Shown here piece by piece: positions 4,418 to 34,868 of a stretch of DNA of 64,000 bases. The notes beneath the pieces are model-generated. The model made no database searches and was not told the origin of the DNA. It saw only the letters and a program-made list of their open reading frames with translations. The translations under genes were made by a program, and so were the position numbers. The stretch's first letter is position 1. Each line of letters starts with the position of its first letter. Origin of the DNA: a phage; assembly GCA_015370545.1 (NCBI GenBank), contig GCA_015370545.1_3932.1, one strand, 5' to 3'.

Positions 4418-6562
4418 ATGAACAAAGTACAGATTATTAAAAAGAATGGCTCACTTGAAGAACCTGATATCAAAAAAGTTTTAGCAGCAGTAACTAAGTC
4501 AGCTAACAGGGTTGGGTATAAAGAACTTCCACCAGATGTTACCCAAGCTCTTGAGTCAGCATTCATGAGGATTCTGGTGAAGTCCACTAAGCAGAATAAT
4601 TTGCTCATCTCGGTAAATGACATTCACAGTATTGTTGAGGGTGCTTTGGCAGAAGTCAATCACGAGATTTACGAGTCTTACTCAACATATAGAAATTACC
4701 GTAAAGAGGTTGCTCAAAATTGGGATGAGCTTTACCAAAAGACTAGAGACACACTCTTCTTAGGTGACCGTGAAAATGCCAACTTTGACAGCAGTTTAAT
4801 TTCTACAAAAGGTTCAATTATTCGTGGTTATCTGACTAAAGAAATCTTTAAACAATACCATTTAACACCAGAGGAACTTGAAGCCATTGAAAAAGGGTTT
4901 ATCTACATCCATGACTTAAGAGACTTAATTTTTGGTGGTATTAACTGCTGCTTGTTTGACATTGGTAAAGTACTGAAAGGTGGCTTTGAAATGTCTGGCA
5001 TCGAATACTGTGAACCGAAGTCTGTACTGTCAGCCTTACAGGTTATTGGTGACGTAGTACTTTCAGCAACTGCACAGCAATTTGGTGGTTTTACTTTAGC
5101 AGAGATTGATAAGGTACTTGTACCGTATGCTAAGAAGTCTCTACGCTATCATGCTGAGAAAGCATCATCTTATGGTATTCCTAAAGAGCATTACCACAAT
5201 TATGTAATGGAGCAGTTACAAATTGAACTGACTCAGGGTTTTCAGTCACTTGAGATGAAACTAAATACCGTACCTTGTAGCCGTGGTGATTTTGCATTCA
5301 CAACTTTAACATTTGGTTTACTTGACTCAGATATGTCTAATGAGGATAATCGACTCCAATACATGATTGCAAGTACTCTCCTAGATGTTCGTATGAATGG
5401 ACAAGGCAAGAGCAAAAAACCTGTTGTATTCCCTAAACTGGTTTATATTTATGACCAGAAGAGACATGATGAAAATATCTGTCAAGGCCACCTGTACAGT
5501 AAAGCTATCGAGTGTTGCTCTAAAGCGATGTATCCAGATTTCTTAAGTGTGTCTGGTCATGGTGCTGTAGCAGAGGCTTTTGAGCGTTCTGGTAAGGTAA
5601 TTTCACCGATGGGTTGCAGAGCCTTTTTATCTCCATATCTTAATGAGGGTGGAGAAGAGTTCTACGTTGGTCGTGCTAACATTGGTGCTGTATCTTTGAA
5701 CTTACCAATGATTTACCAGTATTCTAAAGAGAATGGTTTAGATTTCTGGAAAGAGCTTGATAAGTACCTAGAGATGATTCGTAGTTTCCATAAGAAACGC
5801 TACGAAATGATTGCTAATATGCCAGCAAGTTCTAACCCTCTTGCATTCACACAAGGTGGTCTGTACAAAGGAACTAAGAAACCTACTGACAAGGTTGGTT
5901 GGGATATTGTGAAGTCCTTCACAGCTTCTTTTGGTGTTACTGCGCTTGATGAGTTGTCTGTTCTTGCTGAAGGTAAACGACTTCATGAAGTTGGAAGCTA
6001 TAGTTTTGCATATGATGTTCTGGCATACATCAACATGAAAACCGAAGAGTTTAAAAATGAAGATGGCTTCTTATATGCCGTCTATGGTACTCCAGCAGAA
6101 TCACTATGTGGGACTCAGCTAAAACAGTTCAGAGATATGTTTGGCGTTATCAAAGGTGTTTCTGACAAGGAATACTTTACAAACAGTTTCCATATGAATG
6201 TTGCAGCAGACATCTCACCATTTGAGAAGCAGGACTTAGAAGAACCATTCTTCCATATCTGTAGAGGCGGTAGAATCCAGTATGTAAGAGTAGCTAACCC
6301 AGAAAACTTATCAGCACTTAAAAGTTGTATTACAAGAGGGATGTTGAAAGGTTTCTATCAGGGACTTAACTTTGACTTAGCAATCTGTGAGCATTGTGGT
6401 AACAGACCAAAGGCTGATGTTGAAGAATGTGAGGTTTGCCATTCACATGATATCTCTGTGATTAACAGGGTGTGTGGGTATCTTGGATGGACTAAGATTA
6501 AAGGTGAATCCCGAATGAACGATGCAAAAATCGCTGAGATTCGTGACAGAGTTTCTATGTAA
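4418..6562 (+). CDS. nrdD: anaerobic ribonucleotide reductase class III
   Basis: 714 aa; C-terminal CxxC...CxxC zinc ribbon and glycyl-radical motif RVCGYLG. Confidence 0.9.
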   Translation: MNKVQIIKKNGSLEEPDIKKVLAAVTKSANRVGYKELPPDVTQALESAFMRILVKSTKQNNLLISVNDIHSIVEGALAEVNHEIYESYSTYRNYRKEVAQNWDELYQKTRDTLFLGDRENANFDSSLISTKGSIIRGYLTKEIFKQYHLTPEELEAIEKGFIYIHDLRDLIFGGINCCLFDIGKVLKGGFEMSGIEYCEPKSVLSALQVIGDVVLSATAQQFGGFTLAEIDKVLVPYAKKSLRYHAEKASSYGIPKEHYHNYVMEQLQIELTQGFQSLEMKLNTVPCSRGDFAFTTLTFGLLDSDMSNEDNRLQYMIASTLLDVRMNGQGKSKKPVVFPKLVYIYDQKRHDENICQGHLYSKAIECCSKAMYPDFLSVSGHGAVAEAFERSGKVISPMGCRAFLSPYLNEGGEEFYVGRANIGAVSLNLPMIYQYSKENGLDFWKELDKYLEMIRSFHKKRYEMIANMPASSNPLAFTQGGLYKGTKKPTDKVGWDIVKSFTASFGVTALDELSVLAEGKRLHEVGSYSFAYDVLAYINMKTEEFKNEDGFLYAVYGTPAESLCGTQLKQFRDMFGVIKGVSDKEYFTNSFHMNVAADISPFEKQDLEEPFFHICRGGRIQYVRVANPENLSALKSCITRGMLKGFYQGLNFDLAICEHCGNRPKADVEECEVCHSHDISVINRVCGYLGWTKIKGESRMNDAKIAEIRDRVSM

Positions 6563-6716
6563 AACTTGACATGGTGGTGTGAGTCTTGATAGGCTTACAT
6601 CACCTTTTTTATTGGATGTTAGATATGGCAGAGAGTATTATTGGGTTGTTCATAGGTTCTGTCTTACTAGGGTTCTTTTTAGGACTCTCTTATTGTGAAT
6701 TAAGAGGCAAGTTAAA

Positions 6717-6917
6717 ATGTTTAAAATATCAAAAGCGTTGATATACATTCTCCACATTCTAATCTTCTTCTTTGGGGTTAGTGTTATGGTATGGGGTTTT
6801 TCAGACCCACAATGGAGTTTCGCATATCAGGGTCAGATGGATTTATGGTCATGCTTCAAACCATTTTTAGGGTTAGTCATAGCATTCAGTGCATTGCCAA
6901 CTAAGGTGAAATTATGA
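6717..6917 (+). CDS. small membrane protein
   Basis: 66 aa, two hydrophobic helices. Confidence 0.35.
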   Translation: MFKISKALIYILHILIFFFGVSVMVWGFSDPQWSFAYQGQMDLWSCFKPFLGLVIAFSALPTKVKL

Positions 6918-13919: not shown

Positions 13920-16286
13920 ATGCGCATGGTAAATGACCACGCAGAAGTGATTAAGAGTTCGACTTCTTTAGAGACGTCTCAAGCACAGATTACAATGACA
14001 CCTGAGATGTTCAGCCTTTTGAGTTCTGGTGTATATACATTTAAAGAAAGGGCAGTGATTCGTGAACTGTCATGTAACGCAGTAGATGCTCAGAAAGAAG
14101 CTGGAAAAGAGAAAATCCCATTCCATGTGCATTTACCTACTCGTTTTGAGCCTTACTTCGAAGTTCGTGATTTTGGAACTGGATTGACTCATGATAAAGT
14201 TATGAGTTTGTACCTAAACTACGGGGCTTCTACGAAGAATGACTCTAATGACTACATTGGTGCAATGGGTATCGGCTCAAAGTCACCATTTGCAATTGCT
14301 CAGTCATTCACAGTATCTAGCTATGTTGACGGTGTTGTTAATAAGTACTCTGTTTATCTTGAGAATGGTATCCCTCAAGTAACTAAGCTGACAACTAACC
14401 CAACAAAAGAACCTAATGGTTTAGCTGTACGTGTGGCAGTTGCTGACCACCGTATCTCAAAGTTCTTTGAAGAAGCTGGGAATGTGTACTCATACTTCAC
14501 TGTAAAACCAGAAAGTAATATTGAGTACGACGATGTATTAGCAGATATGAACGTCATTGCCCGTGAAGAAGGTGTTTATGATGCCATGATTCATAAGCAA
14601 AGCTGGCGTTCTGGCGCTAACAGAACAGAGTTTAATGTGGTGATGGGTAACATTGCCTACCCTGTTAACATGGAAGCATTACTTGGAGATGATTTCTTCA
14701 AAGTATTGCCAGAATTTTTCCGTAGGAGCGTAGACCTTGTAAACATCTACATGCCTATTGGTTCAGTTGCTATTGCAGCTTCTCGTGAAGCATTGCAGAT
14801 GAATGACACGACAAAAAATGTTATCATCGAGGCTACTAAAAAGATAACTGAAGCAATTACAAAGGATGTTATCAAGAAAGTTAATAGTCAACCTACACTC
14901 ATGGATGCTGCACAGGCTTATGCTGAGTTACGCTTGAACTCACGAGAGATGTTTAATGCTGTGTGTCCAAAGCTAGAGTGGGGAGGCGTTAAGCTTGATT
15001 CTCTGGAAGAAGAATTACTAAACATTCGTCGTGGAATTATCTACGCAGAAGACGGCTCAGTTATTTATGAACGTGATGGTAAAGGTAATATTAAGGTTGA
15101 TAGGAACGGAAACAACATCCCTAAAGTAGATTATCTTTATAATCCAGTTGCTTATGTTAAGTTCAACTCTTTAGAAAGTAAGATTCGTGCAACAGCACTT
15201 TCCTACACTCAAGAGGCAAGTATGTTCAATATCTTTGGCGTAATGCGCAAAAGCCAAATTGAACAGTTTTTGTTTGTTATCAATGACCGTCGCAATAAAA
15301 ATGGTACTGAGAAGACTGTAGGACGCAACCAAATCTTGCGTGGTGCATGTCGAGACTATGCCAGTGAGTCAAGTCTGTTTCACAGATATAATGGTATTGT
15401 CTTTGTATTCCCTAATGAGGAAGAGCTAGATGATTTAATCAATCTGCACAAACTTGATAAAAGCTTGTTAAAGATTGTGAAGATGTCTGATAAGGAACAC
15501 CATTACCAGCGTAAAGAAGCTGTAAGAGGTGTTGTAAAACTCTGGAAAGCTGTTCCAGCAGAAGGTGTAGCTTCCTATAAAGAGGTTTCAGAAGACTTAG
15601 ATACGATTGAAGAGCCTCAACTTTATATTAAGGCAGTAGGTGACACAGTTGATGGCGAATGTTTTTGCTCATCTCCAGAAGATGTAGCTAAGTCAGTTGC
15701 CAATGTCATTGAAAAGACAGTCTATGTTTTCCGAAAAGCAAATTGGAAAAAGATACCAGAAGACTGGATTGAAGTAGATGAGAAGCTCTTGAACGACAGC
15801 TTAACTGATGTTCACTGGATTAATCATAACAGGTATATGACACGTATCTATATGAATGGTGTCCTAGACCTTACAAGCAGTTGGATTATTGCCAGAAACT
15901 TTACGTTCAATAACAGGAAGATTTCTCGCGGTTATTGCTATTCACGAGACACAAACAAAACTATCTTCTTAGAAGGTAATGAAGATGCTGTTGAGGCAAT
16001 GTTTGGTAAAATCCAATACGTTGCTGCACCGTTTGCATACACTTACACTATTAGTCGGTTGCAAACTTTGAAAGAGTGCCTTGACAACGATACAAAGCTG
16101 TACAAGAAAATTAAGAAAGCTGGTGACCGTATGGTCATTAAGGTGACAAACTATCTTTCAAAAAGAAAACAAGAAAACTTCTTGCTTTCTCATTTAGATT
16201 GGAATAAAGTGTCACCCATCGAAGTGAGTAAGTTCTTAGGCTTTGATGTGAAGTGTGTTCCAGAAGGGACTACAATTTACGATTAA
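13920..16286 (+). CDS. rIIA: rIIA-like protein (GHKL ATPase domain)
   Basis: 788 aa; N-terminal VIRELSCNAVDA and FEVRDFGTGLT resemble the Bergerat ATP-binding fold; followed by an rIIB-sized gene. Confidence 0.6.
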   Translation: MRMVNDHAEVIKSSTSLETSQAQITMTPEMFSLLSSGVYTFKERAVIRELSCNAVDAQKEAGKEKIPFHVHLPTRFEPYFEVRDFGTGLTHDKVMSLYLNYGASTKNDSNDYIGAMGIGSKSPFAIAQSFTVSSYVDGVVNKYSVYLENGIPQVTKLTTNPTKEPNGLAVRVAVADHRISKFFEEAGNVYSYFTVKPESNIEYDDVLADMNVIAREEGVYDAMIHKQSWRSGANRTEFNVVMGNIAYPVNMEALLGDDFFKVLPEFFRRSVDLVNIYMPIGSVAIAASREALQMNDTTKNVIIEATKKITEAITKDVIKKVNSQPTLMDAAQAYAELRLNSREMFNAVCPKLEWGGVKLDSLEEELLNIRRGIIYAEDGSVIYERDGKGNIKVDRNGNNIPKVDYLYNPVAYVKFNSLESKIRATALSYTQEASMFNIFGVMRKSQIEQFLFVINDRRNKNGTEKTVGRNQILRGACRDYASESSLFHRYNGIVFVFPNEEELDDLINLHKLDKSLLKIVKMSDKEHHYQRKEAVRGVVKLWKAVPAEGVASYKEVSEDLDTIEEPQLYIKAVGDTVDGECFCSSPEDVAKSVANVIEKTVYVFRKANWKKIPEDWIEVDEKLLNDSLTDVHWINHNRYMTRIYMNGVLDLTSSWIIARNFTFNNRKISRGYCYSRDTNKTIFLEGNEDAVEAMFGKIQYVAAPFAYTYTISRLQTLKECLDNDTKLYKKIKKAGDRMVIKVTNYLSKRKQENFLLSHLDWNKVSPIEVSKFLGFDVKCVPEGTTIYD

Positions 16287-16365: not shown

Positions 16366-17475
16366 ATGACTACTAAAACTAAAGCACAGATTGACGCAGA
16401 AATTTACAAACTGGTAAAAGAAGGTAAGCTGACCAAAACAGCTATTGCACAGAAATTTAACACTTCAACCCGTTCAGTTGGTCGTGCTGTAGAGCGTCAT
16501 GAAGCAACCCTAAAAGGGAATAAAAAGGCAACTTCTACACCAGCTACGAAGACTTTGAAACAAGTTGCTAAGACTTTTAAAAAGAAAGCTGGCAAACAAG
16601 TTGAAAAGGTCGTTAAAGACACTGTACAGAAAGCTCCAGTAAATAAACTGCACGAAGCTATGCAGAAAGATGACAAGATTGAGTACATGATTACTGGTGA
16701 TTCTGTAATTATGACTTATGGTTCAGAATCTGAAATTGTTGAGTCTACTCATCCGAACTATCAAGAGATTGTAGTTCATGTTGTGAAAGGTGAGTTCAAG
16801 AAAGCATTTGAACTGATGAACATTCGTAAGTCTATCGAAAACTTCACTCAGGGTGCTATCACAATCAAAGGCGACAAGCTATTCTACGGTGCTGTTGAGA
16901 TGCGTTCTACTCTGGTTGACCGTATTCTTCACATGATGAAAACTGGTGATAAAGGTTTTGAACGACTTGTAATGTTCTTCGAAAAACTGATGGAAAACCC
17001 ATCTAAAGATTCTGTAGAACAACTTTGGGGATTTGTATCTCACCTTGATGTTGAAATTGATGAAGAAGGTTACATCATTGGTTGGAAGAAAGTCTCTACT
17101 CGTGAAGGAAAGCTGGTTGACTCTCACACCTACAAAGTGCCTAATGATTTGGGTAACATTGTAGAAATGCCACGTTGGATGGTTGATAATAACCGTAACG
17201 TAACTTGCTCTCAAGGTCTTCATGTTGGCGCTTGGGATTATGTTCGTTGCTTCTCAGGTGATACCATCCTGAAGGTTCGTGTCCATCCACGAGATGTTGT
17301 ATCCGTACCAACTGATTACAACGATATGAAGATGCGTTCCTCTCGTTATGAAGTTGCAGCAATCGTTGATAATCAACGTAAAGTGCTGGAAGCATGGGAC
17401 GGTAAGACTGAAGCTTTGCATGTCATCGTTGGCACTGCTGGTGAACTCATCTCTCAACGTAAACGTGAAATCTAA
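16366..17475 (+). CDS. rIIB: rIIB-like protein
   Basis: 369 aa directly downstream of the rIIA-like gene; call is by position and size only. Confidence 0.5.
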   Translation: MTTKTKAQIDAEIYKLVKEGKLTKTAIAQKFNTSTRSVGRAVERHEATLKGNKKATSTPATKTLKQVAKTFKKKAGKQVEKVVKDTVQKAPVNKLHEAMQKDDKIEYMITGDSVIMTYGSESEIVESTHPNYQEIVVHVVKGEFKKAFELMNIRKSIENFTQGAITIKGDKLFYGAVEMRSTLVDRILHMMKTGDKGFERLVMFFEKLMENPSKDSVEQLWGFVSHLDVEIDEEGYIIGWKKVSTREGKLVDSHTYKVPNDLGNIVEMPRWMVDNNRNVTCSQGLHVGAWDYVRCFSGDTILKVRVHPRDVVSVPTDYNDMKMRSSRYEVAAIVDNQRKVLEAWDGKTEALHVIVGTAGELISQRKREI

Positions 17476-17490
17476 TAAGTAATTTCTTAA

Positions 17491-17516
17491 AAGGCTGCTT
17501 CGGCGGCCTTTTTTAT
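17491..17516 (+). terminator. intrinsic terminator
   Basis: AAGGCTGC-TTCG-GCGGCCTT hairpin followed by TTTTTATTT. Confidence 0.7.
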
Positions 17517-17575
17517 TTGTATTTTGTGCAGAGTGCTGTATAATTGTTGTCACGATAAACTAAACAGGAGAACCA

Positions 17576-18124
17576 ATGAAGAAATTGATTCTAGGTTTGT
17601 GCTTAATGTTTACAGCACACTTATCTTATGCAGTTGACTGCCCAGAGCTATCAATTAGCCAAAAAGTGAACATGTTAAAAGCTTACCAGTATGGTGAGAA
17701 TAACATGGGTAAAGGTTGGGGTATCACTCTAGCAGCTATAGCCTTACAAGAGTCAGAGTTAGGTCTGAAGGTAGAAAATAAAAAGACCCATGACTATGGT
17801 ATCTTCCAGAATCACTTGAAGACTGTTGTAAAGCGTAACAAAATTAGTCCTAATGTTGCTAAAAAGAAACTCTTAAAAGATTTTGACTATGCCGCAAAAG
17901 AAACACATAAAGAGCTTGAGTTTTGGACGAAGGTACATGGTCAGCCAAAGTCAAAGAAGACTTTACAAAAAGTTTTAGCATCATATAATGCTGGGTATTC
18001 GTACAAAATCCCTAAAGCTAAGAAATACTCTCAAGATGTCTATAACAATATGAAAGTTATCGCTCAATGTGAATTTGCAACAAACATTTCTAAGGTAAAT
18101 CATGAAAAAATTAAGAAAGTCTGA
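17576..18124 (+). CDS. secreted protein with lytic-transglycosylase-like motif
   Basis: N-terminal signal peptide MKKLILGLCLMFTAHLSYA; ALQESELGL...DYGIFQ resembles the SLT catalytic region. Confidence 0.45.
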   Translation: MKKLILGLCLMFTAHLSYAVDCPELSISQKVNMLKAYQYGENNMGKGWGITLAAIALQESELGLKVENKKTHDYGIFQNHLKTVVKRNKISPNVAKKKLLKDFDYAAKETHKELEFWTKVHGQPKSKKTLQKVLASYNAGYSYKIPKAKKYSQDVYNNMKVIAQCEFATNISKVNHEKIKKV

Positions 18125-18797
18125 TGAAGTCCTGTGCCACGCTTATGACTTGCATCCTCATGAGTTAGGTCTTGATTCCTGTGTATGGACTCCAGAACAG
18201 TGCAGGGATTTTGAAGACACTGCAAGAGAAGTTGTATGTTCACTGGAAGAGTTCCACACATCAGAACCAATTGTGAACGTTGTGGACAAAGAGACTGGAC
18301 AAACTATAGGTGTAAGGCGTGATAGTTTAGTCATAGTCAATAAAGACCTTGTAGAAAAAGGTAACCTCATCTTAGCAGATATTGATGGTGTTCTTACAAA
18401 TTTTAATCACGAAGATTGCTCAACGGAATTGACTGATGGGTCATTCTCACAGTACACTAATCTTCTTGACTCTGTAAGAGCAAAACCAACATATGTTTTT
18501 AGTATTATTGATGCAATTGCTAGTCATGCTGCCATTGGACTCTTGACAGCGAGAGGTGAATCTCAGAGAATACCTACTGAGATGTTTTTAAGGCATAACA
18601 TAGAGCATGATTACATGCTTTTTATGCGTGGTTTTGGAACTAACTCTATAAGTGCAGAAAGTTTAAAAGTGAGGATGATTCAGTCTTGCATTCTTCCTTA
18701 TTTTAATATAGTATGCTTTATAGAAGATACAGAGAAGAATGTTCAGAAGGTTAACAGAATCCTTCCACACATTAAAACCATGTTAGTTAAACATTGA
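18102..18797 (+). CDS. HAD-superfamily hydrolase-like protein
   Basis: LADIDGVLTN (HAD motif I-like), GLLTARGE and IEDTEKN; true start uncertain. Confidence 0.4.
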   Translation: MKKLRKSDEVLCHAYDLHPHELGLDSCVWTPEQCRDFEDTAREVVCSLEEFHTSEPIVNVVDKETGQTIGVRRDSLVIVNKDLVEKGNLILADIDGVLTNFNHEDCSTELTDGSFSQYTNLLDSVRAKPTYVFSIIDAIASHAAIGLLTARGESQRIPTEMFLRHNIEHDYMLFMRGFGTNSISAESLKVRMIQSCILPYFNIVCFIEDTEKNVQKVNRILPHIKTMLVKH

Positions 18798-18808
18798 GAG
18801 AAAAACTT

Positions 18809-19273
18809 ATGAACAATATCATTACGGTAGCACTGGACGATACGGCAAACAAATCTGAAGTAGTTCGTAAAATGATTCAAGGTAACTTTGAAGGTAAAAT
18901 TTTCCGTGCTGTTAATGTAAAAGCTGATGGTAGTATTCGTGAATATCGTGCATTGTTGAATGTTAAAAAGCACGTAAAAGGTGCTGGTTCAACGACTGCA
19001 CACAAAGAAAACCTGATGACTATCTATGATATGGGTAAGGCTTCAGAGTTAGGTGCTGAAGGTATCGTTAAAGAAGGTGCTCCGTATCGCTCTTTCAATC
19101 TGGAAACTACTCTTATGCTTTCCTTTACAAGTGGTTCTAAAACAATCACTTATCTCTTTACTGATGCTGCAACGGTATCTGCTATTAAGGATAGCACTGT
19201 CAAAGCTGGCGTAGTTGCTGCTGCAAAAGCTTCTTCGATGGCTGCAAATATCCTTGCTAAAGTCCTCGGTTAA
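18809..19273 (+). CDS. hypothetical protein
   Basis: start set at ATG 18809 after TTGAGAGAAAAACTT leader. Confidence 0.4.
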   Translation: MNNIITVALDDTANKSEVVRKMIQGNFEGKIFRAVNVKADGSIREYRALLNVKKHVKGAGSTTAHKENLMTIYDMGKASELGAEGIVKEGAPYRSFNLETTLMLSFTSGSKTITYLFTDAATVSAIKDSTVKAGVVAAAKASSMAANILAKVLG

Positions 19274-19284
19274 GGTTAAGATAC

Positions 19285-19306
19285 AGGCTCCTTCGGGAGC
19301 CTTTTT
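19285..19306 (+). terminator. intrinsic terminator
   Basis: AGGCTCC-TTCG-GGAGCCT hairpin followed by TTTTT. Confidence 0.7.
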
Positions 19307-19325
19307 CATTTCAGGAGATTGTTAA

Positions 19326-19673
19326 ATGACATTTAAAGAGTTCTGTCAAGCTACTTTCATAATTGTTTTCTTAGTTGGGGCAGGTGTCTGGGGAGGATAC
19401 TCTTACAGAGACTACCAAGTTGCTGAAGCTGAGTTAAGCAATGAGAAACTAATAAGTGTTGCTAAAGATGCTTATCAGGAAGGTTTAGCCACACTCAGCA
19501 CCAATTACAAAAATGATTTGAAAGATGTGCTTGCTAAGAATAAGCATACAAAAGAGGTACTAACATATGAAAAAACTAAGCCAGAGTTTTATAATGTTTG
19601 TGTTACTGATAATTATGTCAGGGTGTTCAACGAACAAAGTGAACAGTACATTCAAAAACTCCCAAGTAAGTGA
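19326..19673 (+). CDS. i-spanin (Rz-like)
   Basis: 115 aa; N-terminal transmembrane helix then charged periplasmic domain; contains an overlapping lipoprotein gene in another frame. Confidence 0.65.
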   Translation: MTFKEFCQATFIIVFLVGAGVWGGYSYRDYQVAEAELSNEKLISVAKDAYQEGLATLSTNYKNDLKDVLAKNKHTKEVLTYEKTKPEFYNVCVTDNYVRVFNEQSEQYIQKLPSK

Positions 19674-19836
19674 GAGTGACAAGTACACTCAAGAAGAGTC
19701 AAGATTCACTGTCAAAGGTAATACTGGTAGTGATGTGGCAGCAGCCCTTGAGTTTTATCGTGATGGTTTTTACCAGTGCACAATCAAAGCTAATAACCTT
19801 ATTGATATGATTTTATTAGGAAACAAACAGCAATGA
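19567..19836 (+). CDS. o-spanin (Rz1-like lipoprotein)
   Basis: starts inside the Rz-like gene in a different frame; signal peptide with lipobox IIMSGC. Confidence 0.65.
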   Translation: MKKLSQSFIMFVLLIIMSGCSTNKVNSTFKNSQVSESDKYTQEESRFTVKGNTGSDVAAALEFYRDGFYQCTIKANNLIDMILLGNKQQ

Positions 19837-20102
19837 CAGAGAATGAAGACACTTTCTATGTAGAAGGGTACTTACTGCTACCACGACCAAAAGAAACTTA
19901 TATGCGGGTTGATTTCTCACCAACCATTATGGATAATGTGATGTGTCATATCTTTATGCAAGGTGTCACAGCACAGCTTAAGCACGTTGGTAAAGAGTGC
20001 AAAATAAAGGTTGACACTCATCCAGAAATCAAAGAGAATCACTACACATGGTTCTTACCAGATTCTAAAGAAATCTTAGCAGTTCTTAAAACGAGGAAAT
20101 GA
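19833..20102 (+). CDS. hypothetical protein
   Basis: 89-aa ORF; ATGA overlap with upstream stop. Confidence 0.4.
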   Translation: MTENEDTFYVEGYLLLPRPKETYMRVDFSPTIMDNVMCHIFMQGVTAQLKHVGKECKIKVDTHPEIKENHYTWFLPDSKEILAVLKTRK

Positions 20103-20413
20103 TTATGCAATTCCAGCCAACCAATCGTGGATTTTCTTATGCAGAATTTAAAGATGCTAAAGGGGAAATTTGTACTTTACAAGAGAGTTCATCATATGAA
20201 CCATGTATTTGGTTAGGTGCTAAAGAGGTCTCTGTTCAGTACCTAGATGGTGGCTGGAAAACACTTGATATCCCAGCATTAGTAGGCAAAGATTTTGTAG
20301 GTAACCAAAGAATGAAACTCAACCAAGAACAGGTGAAAGAGTTATTGCCATACCTTCAGTACTTTGCTGAAAATGGTGAATTACCAACAGAGGAACTTAC
20401 AAATGCAGATTAA
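20099..20413 (+). CDS. hypothetical protein
   Basis: 104-aa ORF; ATGA overlap. Confidence 0.4.
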   Translation: MIMQFQPTNRGFSYAEFKDAKGEICTLQESSSYEPCIWLGAKEVSVQYLDGGWKTLDIPALVGKDFVGNQRMKLNQEQVKELLPYLQYFAENGELPTEELTNAD

Positions 20414-20729
20414 TGGAAGAGACTTTGTAGCCGTTTACTACGAGAAAGATAAAGAAGTTGGCGTAGCACAAGTATCTTATGGTAATGGTAAGTGGTTGTA
20501 TGGGACAATCGCAGTAGTCGGAACAAGAAGTGATACAAAAACTTTTAAAGATTGTGTTGACCTCCTTGAAGAATCCATTCAGAATCATTGGTGTCTGATA
20601 TGGATGACTGACAACGAAGTGATAGAACGCTTCAAAAAGATTGATATCAACATTGATAGTATTGAGCATGTTGATTTATATGAGCTAACTGAGAAGGTAA
20701 ACTATGAGAGTAATTCTAGCCAGAGATAA
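20403..20729 (+). CDS. hypothetical protein
   Basis: start set at ATG 20403 (MQINGRDF) overlapping upstream stop. Confidence 0.4.
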   Translation: MQINGRDFVAVYYEKDKEVGVAQVSYGNGKWLYGTIAVVGTRSDTKTFKDCVDLLEESIQNHWCLIWMTDNEVIERFKKIDINIDSIEHVDLYELTEKVNYESNSSQR

Positions 20730-21124: not shown

Positions 21125-21910
21125 ATGGGTATTGTAAAAATAATTAATGGTGATATCTTTGCCGCATTTGATAAAGGTAAGTTTGACATCATCGGTCACG
21201 GTTGCAACTGTATGAATTTAATGAGTGCAGGTATCGCTGACAAGATTTCTAAACTTTACCCAAAAGCATATGAGACCGATACAGAAGTTTATCTGTATGC
21301 AGGTGGTATAGGACACAAACCCTGTGAAAATTTACTAGGTAATTTCTCTGTAGCACGTTTAAAACAAGGTCGTATAGCTAATCTTTACACTCAGCTTAAG
21401 ACTGGTAAAGATGCCCGATACAGTGCTTTAGAGTCATCTTTGAAACAGCTTAACAGATACTGTGAAGTTAATCAGTTGAAGAAAGTTGGGTTACCTATGA
21501 TTGGTGCAGGTATCGGTGGACTTGACCCTCAAGCCGTTACCGTTATCATTAATCAGGTGATGAAGAGTGTAGATGTGTATCTGTATGTCTACGAAGGAGA
21601 GATGTACCACAAGTTACGCTCAGGTTGGAATAACTACTGCGAACCAGAATACTTTGCAGGTGTAGTAACGTTCACAGACAATGCAGTTACCCTCTTCAGA
21701 CGAAGAAAAGGTAAGATACATCAAAGTAACCCTCCGGTTGAAAAGATGTCTCTAAGTAACGCTCTAGTTACCCACCTGTCGAAGAGCAATCACAGAATTG
21801 CAGTAACATTTGGCAGTGATGCAGACACATATATCTATGCAAGGACTGATGAAGATATCGAGGAGATTTTCTCATCACAAGAAGTTACCTTCTTAGACGC
21901 AAAGAACTAA
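21125..21910 (+). CDS. macro-domain protein (Poa1p-like)
   Basis: 261 aa; N-terminal IIGHGCNCMNLMSAGIA matches the H-x-CNC...G-x-GIA signature recalled from yeast Poa1p. Confidence 0.6.
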   Translation: MGIVKIINGDIFAAFDKGKFDIIGHGCNCMNLMSAGIADKISKLYPKAYETDTEVYLYAGGIGHKPCENLLGNFSVARLKQGRIANLYTQLKTGKDARYSALESSLKQLNRYCEVNQLKKVGLPMIGAGIGGLDPQAVTVIINQVMKSVDVYLYVYEGEMYHKLRSGWNNYCEPEYFAGVVTFTDNAVTLFRRRKGKIHQSNPPVEKMSLSNALVTHLSKSNHRIAVTFGSDADTYIYARTDEDIEEIFSSQEVTFLDAKN

Positions 21911-34403: not shown

Positions 34404-34868
34404 TTACTTTGGATATACACTGTCAAGATAAATGTCAGCTTCCATTCTACGTCTGTTTTTCAGACCGTTTGAAGTGACCTTCTTACCTTTGACTGTAACC
34501 TTGTTCCACCACTGCATAGCTTCTGCACAACCTACCTTATTACCAGCATTGTGGCGCTTGATAAATGTGGAATCCTGCATAGCTGTGATACCGATGTTGT
34601 ATGTTTCACTTACAAGTGCATCGAACTCATTCTGAGTAGTTGGAACCTTGATAGCTTTGTTCACTGCTGCAACAAACTTCTCAACATCCGCGAGAAGATA
34701 CTGTTCAGCTTGTTCAGCGGTGATTTTCATTCCCATCTTAACAGGTTTTCCGTCAATACGGATTGTACCATACCCGATTGTTGGGATTCCGGCAGAGTCT
34801 TCGTAAGCCTCTAACTCCAGACCTTCGAAGAACTTAATAGCTTCTAAACCTTTTCTTGAGAGTTGCAT
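34404..34868 (-). CDS. endolysin, T4-lysozyme-like (GH24)
   Basis: 154 aa; FEGLELEAYEDSAGIPTIGYGT carries the Glu/Asp/Thr triad spacing recalled for T4 lysozyme. Confidence 0.8.
   Translation of the reverse strand: MQLSRKGLEAIKFFEGLELEAYEDSAGIPTIGYGTIRIDGKPVKMGMKITAEQAEQYLLADVEKFVAAVNKAIKVPTTQNEFDALVSETYNIGITAMQDSTFIKRHNAGNKVGCAEAMQWWNKVTVKGKKVTSNGLKNRRRMEADIYLDSVYPK

Follow-up and report, generated by a model that had tools for sequence, protein, structure and literature searches.

Two-component spanins form a functional class that was reportedly defined by Summer in 2007 and by Kongari in 2018, and the described systems closest to the gene pair analysed here are those of phages lambda, T4 and, above all, Felix O1. 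In the spanin database of Kongari 2018 (PMC6139136), Felix01 (NC_005282.1) is listed with an 'ovl' pair of 115 and 89 aa at 5330-5678 and 5571-5841 that overlap by 107 nt; wV8, Mushroom and Moogle are entered likewise as overlapped 115/89-aa pairs with a 107-nt overlap, and further identical pairs are given for FSL SP-010/012 and UAB_Phi87. The same tables class 58 of the 88 periplasmic residues of the Felix01 i-spanin as helical, with no predicted coiled coil, and the pair tested experimentally in that study was that of T4, not that of Felix O1. The Felix O1 genome paper (Whichard 2010, PMC3185647) describes holin–lysin cassettes as absent and the holin as lying apart from the lysin as in T4, scattered lysis genes have also been published for Moogle (2015, PMC4319497), and the Mushroom announcement uses the term 'T4-like lysis system'. 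At the level of bioinformatic curation, the gene pair, its arrangement and the dispersal of the lysis genes are thus already known and, being present in both the literature and a curated database, they have little discovery value.

Here we analysed a 64,000-nt stretch of phage DNA (assembly GCA_015370545.1), referred to throughout as the window. The window is a Felixounavirus sequence ~98% identical to several Escherichia phages, and the region shares 96-98% nucleotide identity with ~200 Felix O1-like myophages (Felixounavirus, Ounavirinae) with hosts in Escherichia, Salmonella, Shigella and Citrobacter. We conclude, with a probability of about 0.93, that two overlapping ORFs in this window are the two-component spanin (i-spanin and o-spanin) of a Felix O1-like myophage. 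To the published picture the analysis adds the correct start of the o-spanin, the position in the window of the curators' holin candidate, an adjacency of endolysin and spanin genes in phage Wc4, and the conservation of the overlap register across distant phages.

Comparison with Felix O1, lambda and T4

The gene pair, its overlap, its +1 frame and the sequence around its ribosome-binding site (tttttcatttcAGGAGattgttaa) are the same in Felix O1 and in the window, and so is its place in the genome: it follows terminator t5, with rIIB, a RegB-like gene and the polynucleotide kinase gene lying upstream. The differences are strain-level substitutions only, and the i-spanin differs from Felix O1 p014 of the Kongari 2018 database at 4 of 115 residues. 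The Mushroom record annotates an i-spanin and an o-spanin of the same lengths as those in the window, and the Mordin record is curated likewise.

Phage lambda Rz/Rz1 has a similar composition: Rz is a type II protein of the inner membrane, Rz1 is a lipoprotein of the outer membrane read in the +1 frame of the same DNA, and periplasmic cysteines are present. By analogy, the window pair would presumably share the role of Rz/Rz1 in disrupting the outer membrane after endolysin action. In lambda, Rz1 lies wholly within Rz, but the window genes overlap only in part; the predicted mature o-spanin is 70 aa long, compared with ~40 for lambda Rz1, and unlike Rz1 it contains no proline; and lambda gathers its lysis genes in an S-R-Rz/Rz1 cassette, whereas those of the window are dispersed. 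Neither product matched Pfam Phage_lysis (PF03245) or Rz1 (PF06085), even at E <= 1, and searches of the curated NCBIfam families gave only sub-threshold matches to generic lipoprotein signals.

T4 PseT.3/PseT.2 is the closer parallel in layout. The T4 spanin genes are likewise unlinked to the holin (t) and endolysin (e) genes and lie one gene from pseT, which encodes polynucleotide kinase; rIIA and rIIB are found in T4 as well, and the i-spanins are of similar size (117 aa in T4 and 115 aa in the window). On the transcribed strand, the T4 order is alc, pseT.3 (i-spanin), pseT.2 (o-spanin), pseT.1, pseT, which places the T4 spanins upstream of pseT, whereas the window spanins lie downstream of their polynucleotide kinase gene. 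The T4 genes are classed as 'separated' and the window pair is overlapped; PseT.3 has no periplasmic cysteine and PseT.2 has two, whereas the window proteins have one each (T4 data from Kongari 2018, PMC6139136). Homology to the T4 proteins was considered and rejected: BLASTP aligned the i-spanins at E = 17, and the o-spanins in their signal peptides only, at E = 0.034. What the window shares with T4 is the organisation of the genome and not a spanin family, and the shared linkage to a kinase gene is either coincidence or too old to see. With no Pfam Rz/Rz1 match and no similarity to T4, assignment of the window pair to the spanin class rests on architecture, PHROG clustering and context.

An overlapped gene pair behind a terminator

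Both spanin genes are read from the same strand, side by side and with the o-spanin second (Table 1), and their coordinates match exactly those of the 115-aa and 89-aa ORFs in different frames that an earlier note on this DNA had picked out. The o-spanin is read in the +1 frame relative to the i-spanin; its first 107 nt lie within the 3′ end of the i-spanin gene and it extends 163 nt beyond the i-spanin stop codon. The arrangement is therefore overlapped, not embedded, so that of the earlier wording 'embedded/overlapping' only the second half holds. Both start codons are preceded by a Shine-Dalgarno sequence, AGGAG 8 nt upstream of the i-spanin and AAGAGG 9 nt upstream of the o-spanin.

Table 1 Features of the window discussed in the text
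Feature	Position	Strand	Description
rIIA	13920-16286		upstream of spanin pair
rIIB	16366-17475		upstream of spanin pair
RegB-like ORF	17576-18124		upstream of spanin pair
polynucleotide kinase	18102-18797		upstream of spanin pair
159-aa ORF	18794-19273		between polynucleotide kinase and terminator
rho-independent terminator	19285-19310	+	AGGCTCC-TTCG-GGAGCCT then TTTTTCATTT
i-spanin gene	19326-19673	+	ATG start, 115 aa
o-spanin gene	19567-19836	+	ATG start, 89-aa prolipoprotein
five small ORFs			after spanin pair, before macro-domain gene
macro-domain gene	21125-21910		followed by a terminator
endolysin	34404-34868	-	soluble phage lysozyme family, 154 aa, no predicted transmembrane domain
putative holin	42770-43327	+	185 aa, one N-terminal transmembrane domain at ~9-27; curators' assignment by topology only

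Several GenBank records (MW481326, PQ818761) place the o-spanin start at an internal codon, Met17 (window position 19615), which gives a 73-aa product that begins 'MSGC...' and has lost its signal peptide. Met17 is replaced by Ile in two of the 34 related loci and no Shine-Dalgarno sequence was found upstream of 19615, which identifies 19567 as the true start. The Center for Phage Technology (CPT) uses this start, which gives an o-spanin gene of 270 nt, in its annotation of Mushroom and Mordin.

The terminator that precedes the pair, identified by a pattern scan, ends ~3 nt before the i-spanin ribosome-binding site, has a hairpin of ~-14 kcal/mol and is present in 32 of the 34 related loci. 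It is identical to Felix O1 't5' at 5291-5316 (Whichard 2010 Table 2, PMC3185647), and the phage Mordin record annotates the corresponding terminator. No sigma-70-like promoter fits into the interval between terminator and i-spanin ribosome-binding site. In RT-PCR of Felix O1, ORF 6 peaked at 25 min, in the same class as the lysin, ORF 35 (Whichard 2010, PMC3185647); from its place behind t5, with no ORF in between, we infer ORF 6 to be the i-spanin. The spanin pair is probably expressed by read-through of the terminator, at middle times. Further upstream, the RegB-like ORF gave a sub-threshold match to Pfam SLT, a possible hint of another wall-degrading enzyme close to the spanins, but no match among PDB sequences.

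Predicted spanin features of the two products

The 115-aa protein has a hydrophobic stretch at residues ~6-24 (Kyte-Doolittle mean 1.75 over 19 residues), in line with the N-terminal transmembrane helix proposed in the earlier note. It is the single predicted transmembrane domain of the protein, with no second membrane-like segment, and its N-terminal flank carries the more positive charge, consistent with a type II inner-membrane topology and a predicted periplasmic domain of ~90 residues. A single N-terminal transmembrane domain followed by a mostly helical periplasmic domain, as in the spanin class, is thus what is predicted here. PHROG 1152, 'Rz-like spanin', matches the protein over its full length (residues 1-115, E = 8.9e-42), and its homologues in GenBank are labelled I-spanin or Rz-like spanin. 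An invariant cysteine, Cys92, lies in the motif E-K-x(4)-F-x-N-x-C-x(4)-Y-x(4)-N-E (alignment A1).

The N-terminus of the 89-aa protein, MKKLSQSFIMFVLLIIMSGC, comprises a basic n-region, a hydrophobic core and S-G-C, and fits a PROSITE-like lipoprotein pattern, as expected from the lipobox that the earlier note had seen. The predicted signal peptide spans residues 1-19 and the predicted lipobox is M-S-G-C20; signal peptidase II would cleave between MKKLSQSFIMFVLLIIMSG and C, which is followed by S-T, leaving a predicted mature protein of 70 aa that starts C-S-T. Among related loci, the lipobox -3 residue is Met or Ile, compared with the canonical Leu. In the E. coli Lol rule, Asp at position +2 is the avoidance signal, and lipoproteins without it go to the outer membrane. 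Ser at +2 is no Lol-avoidance signal, and the o-spanin is therefore predicted to be an outer-membrane lipoprotein; a lipobox cysteine without +2 Asp, the pattern of the o-spanin class, is present. A six-frame scan of the 64-kb window for ORFs of 50 aa or more with an ATG start and a lipobox gave a single hit, the o-spanin, against 0.85 +/- 1.1 per 64-kb window in a shuffled-sequence control. PHROG 4180 ('unknown function') matches residues 1-88 (E = 5.4e-51) and PHROG 456, Rz-like spanin, gives a weaker match (E = 8e-5). Cys71, predicted to be periplasmic, is invariant (alignment A2). Significant full-length matches to PHROG 1152 and PHROG 4180 together place the pair in the Felix O1 spanin family.

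Structure-based comparison contributed little. Single-sequence AlphaFold2 models gave an all-helical i-spanin and a partly structured mature o-spanin, but with pLDDT values of 48 and 53 neither model is reliable enough for use. Profile searches with alignments A1 and A2 against PDB sequences returned nothing significant, and the best matches, FtsB (E ~0.1) and BamD/BamE (E of at least 0.2), reflect topology only.

Conservation of both reading frames

For the comparison we assembled 34 loci, 29 of them from IMG/VR contigs and the others from GenBank records and the window itself, with 31 distinct nucleotide sequences, the most diverged members being Mooglevirus loci with i-spanin identity down to 76%. 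All 34 loci retain the 115-aa and 89-aa lengths, the ATG starts, the 107-nt overlap and the lipobox. In the region that encodes the i-spanin only, variable sites fall at codon positions 1/2/3 of the i frame in the proportions 22/14/59, of 80 each, and in the region that encodes the o-spanin only they number 15/8/46 in the o frame, of ~54-55 each. Within the overlap, counted in the i frame, variation is reduced at every codon position (9/7/11, of ~36 each). Judged from these substitution patterns, both frames are under purifying selection with the overlap doubly constrained, the pattern expected for two real genes. The i-spanin Cys92 and the o-spanin Cys20 and Cys71 are invariant, distant homologues included, and Cys92 and Cys71 would each offer a periplasmic cysteine for disulfide formation, at least one being a feature of spanins.

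Homologous pairs in distant phages

A tblastn search with the o-spanin identified 359 phage records, of which 101 show <60% identity, and we examined four distant cases: Erwinia phage Omen (Kolesnikvirus), Pectobacterium phage Wc4 (Ounavirinae), Salmonella siphophage 9NA and Escherichia podophage SU10 (Kuravirus). Each carries a homologous pair, with i-spanin identity of 22-28% and o-spanin identity of 30-36%, in which the o-spanin always starts in the +1 frame of the i-spanin; all four pairs are overlapped, and that of 9NA consists of gp59 and an unannotated +1 ORF. Phages similar to phiEa21-4 carry such a pair as well. The lipobox is retained in 5 of 5 distant loci. In Wc4 the pair directly follows an endolysin gene whose product is 45% identical to that of the window (E = 1e-40), and in 9NA the order is holin, endolysin, membrane protein, spanin pair. 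This position beside endolysin or holin genes provides independent support for a function in lysis, and the distant contexts indicate that it is specifically in the Felixounavirus, Mooglevirus and Kolesnikvirus lineages that spanins and endolysin lie apart. Neither the polynucleotide kinase gene nor the 159-aa upstream ORF is conserved beside the distant pairs.

Dispersed lysis genes

The endolysin matches Pfam PF00959, Phage_lysozyme (4.5e-41), and PHROG 7, endolysin (4e-58), and its gene lies 14,568 nt from the o-spanin stop codon on the opposite strand, in agreement with the ~15 kb and opposite orientation given in the earlier note and with its view that the lysis genes are dispersed, a layout already in print for Felix O1 and Moogle. 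The neighbours of the spanin genes and of the endolysin gene are all without a predicted transmembrane domain, so that no holin is adjacent to either locus, as that note had also suspected. Its list of holin candidates among the small membrane proteins (4163, 6717, 13715, 24136, 31550) fared less well, omitting the ORF favoured by the CPT curators. This putative holin, assigned by topology, lies within a tRNA cluster with tRNAs on both sides and is the counterpart of a CDS that carries the label 'holin' in the phage Mushroom record; the Mushroom announcement places that CDS in class III, with one transmembrane domain, N-in/C-out. Its matches are to Pfam DUF7338 (2.8e-62) and PHROG 2143 (unknown function) only, with no named holin family matched in Pfam or PHROG. 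Five other holin candidates have been proposed for Felix O1 (Whichard 2010, PMC3185647).

Alternative readings of the pair

Existing annotation might suggest that only the 115-aa gene is real and that the +1 ORF arose by chance: many Felixounavirus records in GenBank leave the ORF out, call it hypothetical or start it at Met17, and one comparative paper reported 'only the i-spanin' in a Felixounavirus. The codon-position analysis refutes this reading, since variation beyond the overlap is concentrated at third codon positions in the +1 frame (46 of ~55 sites, with 15 and 8 at first and second positions), and length, start codon and lipobox are kept in 34 of 34 loci, with o-spanin homologues at 28-36% identity in distant phages; the ~0.85 such ORFs per 64 kb of shuffled sequence, moreover, would fall anywhere and not specifically at a spanin site. 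We consider the probability of a chance frame negligible, and the 'only the i-spanin' conclusion is instead an example of a missed o-spanin, which is where the annotation value of the present analysis lies. A real lipoprotein gene could still encode a surface or exclusion protein, similar to T5 Llp or Cor, that overlaps a membrane-protein gene by chance. Phage lipoproteins with non-spanin roles exist, and both the 'unknown function' label of PHROG 4180, the best match, and the generic lipoprotein N-termini matched below threshold in NCBIfam would suit such a protein. It is difficult to reconcile, however, with six lineages in which the lipoprotein gene is never without an Rz-like i-spanin partner and always takes the same +1 register, with pairs that abut endolysin or holin genes in two of them, and with a conserved periplasmic cysteine as in spanins; the PHROG 456 match is weak but significant, and the curated spanin database (PMC6139136) enters the protein as an o-spanin. 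Together these observations make an exclusion lipoprotein very improbable.

It is similarly improbable that the spanin pair is real but dispensable or vestigial, with some other factor such as a disruptin-like peptide disrupting the outer membrane. Spanin mutants of lambda are likewise 'non-essential' under shaken laboratory conditions, and the finding that lysis and membrane genes were mostly non-essential in a knockout screen of Bas63 (Felixounavirus) is therefore no argument against spanin function. The distance of the genes from the endolysin and their position behind a terminator would fit a decaying locus, but both genes show strong purifying selection with dual-frame constraint in the overlap, and Felix O1 ORF 6, the probable i-spanin gene, peaks with the lysin. 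We found in the literature no functional test of the Felix O1 spanin family by complementation, lipidation assay or deletion phenotype. A two-component spanin, as the earlier note proposed, accounts best for the PHROG 1152 match, the predicted topology, the dual-frame selection, the cysteines, the context of the homologues and the entry in Kongari 2018.

Proposed mode of action

By analogy with lambda Rz/Rz1 and T4 PseT.3/PseT.2, the i-spanin would be inserted N-in/C-out in the inner membrane, and the o-spanin would be lipidated at Cys20 and sorted by the Lol system to the inner leaflet of the outer membrane. Binding between the two periplasmic domains would create a periplasm-spanning complex, possibly strengthened by homotypic disulfide links via Cys92 and/or Cys71, and these complexes would be held within the peptidoglycan mesh until the wall is degraded. 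Release of the phage lysozyme by the holin would then lead to degradation of the wall and leave the complexes free to collapse, and their collapse would fuse the inner and outer membranes and remove the last barrier to lysis. As spanins of this kind would be harmless until the wall is gone, neither co-location nor co-timing with the endolysin would be needed.

A shared overlap register

The overlap register is identical in all six lineages, with overlaps of 107 to 164 nt. Within it, the lipobox [GA]-C-[ST]-T and the i-spanin's most conserved motif, Y-x-x-[VML]-[FY]-N-E, share ~10 nt (TGTTCAACGA; TGTACAACGA in 9NA), and in 9NA one T>A change explains both the i-spanin F>Y and the o-spanin S>T substitution. 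The tie to the lipobox may be the sole reason why part of the i-spanin motif is kept, or the lipobox may in turn be kept for the sake of the motif. We found no description of such register-locking of overlapped spanin genes in the literature examined; if true, it would refine the evolution of overlapping spanin genes and not define a new kind of system. We tentatively suggest, at somewhat less than even odds, that the overlapped spanin module is a single ancient invention that has moved as a unit among unrelated myo-, sipho- and podoviruses. In three of the six lineages, a macro-domain gene comes after the spanin pair.

A shared overlap register of the spanin genes

The overlapped i-spanin and o-spanin genes of the window have an overlap register common to six lineages, which include myoviruses, siphoviruses and podoviruses. 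About 10 nt (TGTTCAACGA) encode the i-spanin motif Y-x-x-[VML]-[FY]-N-E in one frame and the lipobox [GA]-C-[ST]-T of the o-spanin in the other, and in the Salmonella siphophage 9NA a single T>A substitution within the pair changes both products (F>Y and S>T).

In several Felixounavirus records of GenBank, the o-spanin is annotated from an internal Met (window position 19615 instead of 19567), giving a 73-aa product with the N terminus 'MSGC...' and thereby losing the signal peptide; in many other records of the genus the ORF is hypothetical or missing. Two relatives have Ile in place of this Met, and no ribosome-binding site precedes it; the correct start is therefore 19567 and the product has 89 aa.

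Genomic neighbourhood and expression

In Pectobacterium phage Wc4, an unclassified member of the Ounavirinae, an endolysin 45% identical to that of the window lies immediately upstream of a homologous spanin pair whose o-spanin is left without annotation. The 14.6-kb separation of endolysin and spanins is therefore specific to the Felixounavirus lineage. Homologous spanin pairs are followed by a macro-domain gene ('phosphatase' or Appr-1-p processing) in three lineages: directly in Erwinia phage Omen (44% identity) and podophage SU10 (25% identity, E = 1e-8), and after five small ORFs in the window. Spanin pair and macro-domain gene may constitute a co-transferred module. T4 spanins have no detectable sequence similarity to those of the window, and in both phages a single gene separates the spanin genes from that for polynucleotide kinase, the spanin genes being upstream of the kinase gene in T4 but downstream in the window phage.

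Only a few nucleotides separate the end of a conserved terminator ('t5' in Felix O1) from the ribosome-binding site of the i-spanin, too few to accommodate a sigma-70 promoter. Spanin expression probably comes from read-through of this terminator. The hairpin is absent from 2 of the 34 related loci, both of which differ in upstream sequence. Two genes upstream of the spanins, a RegB-like ORF has a sub-threshold match to the Pfam lytic transglycosylase family SLT (E = 0.0012; 18.8 bits versus a cut-off of 21.3) and no sequence match in the PDB; the Mordin annotation of this ORF also carries a 'lysozyme-like domain'.

Coordinates of the features compared
Feature	Locus	Position	Strand	Remark
Lipobox/i-spanin motif stretch	Window	19614-19643
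	L005-L009 (register comparison)	around 1555-1585
o-spanin, internal-Met start	L001	2616-2837		GenBank record
	L002	2612-2833		GenBank record
Endolysin and spanin pair	L007 (Wc4)	794-1776
Macro-domain gene	Window	21125-21910
	L006 (Omen)	1784-2551
	L009 (SU10)	1761-2201
Spanin and kinase genes	L040 (T4)	5003-6782
Polynucleotide kinase gene	Window	18102-18797
RegB-like ORF	Window	17576-18124
Terminator	Window	19285-19310
tRNA array	Window	39412-44688		26 tRNA genes
Putative holin	Window	42770-43327	+	185 aa, one N-terminal TMD; class III holin according to Center for Phage Technology annotators
tRNA genes and 'holin' CDS	L004 (Mushroom)	16514-20574

A putative holin within the tRNA cluster

The putative holin ORF lies in the middle of the tRNA cluster, on the same strand as the tRNA genes, and its sole matches are DUF7338 and PHROG 2143 (unknown function). 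The Mushroom GenBank record places the tRNA genes on the strand opposite its 'holin' CDS and in the reverse of the window order; ARAGORN places the window tRNAs on one strand together with the ORF homologous to that 'holin'. The tRNA strand in the Mushroom record is probably wrong.
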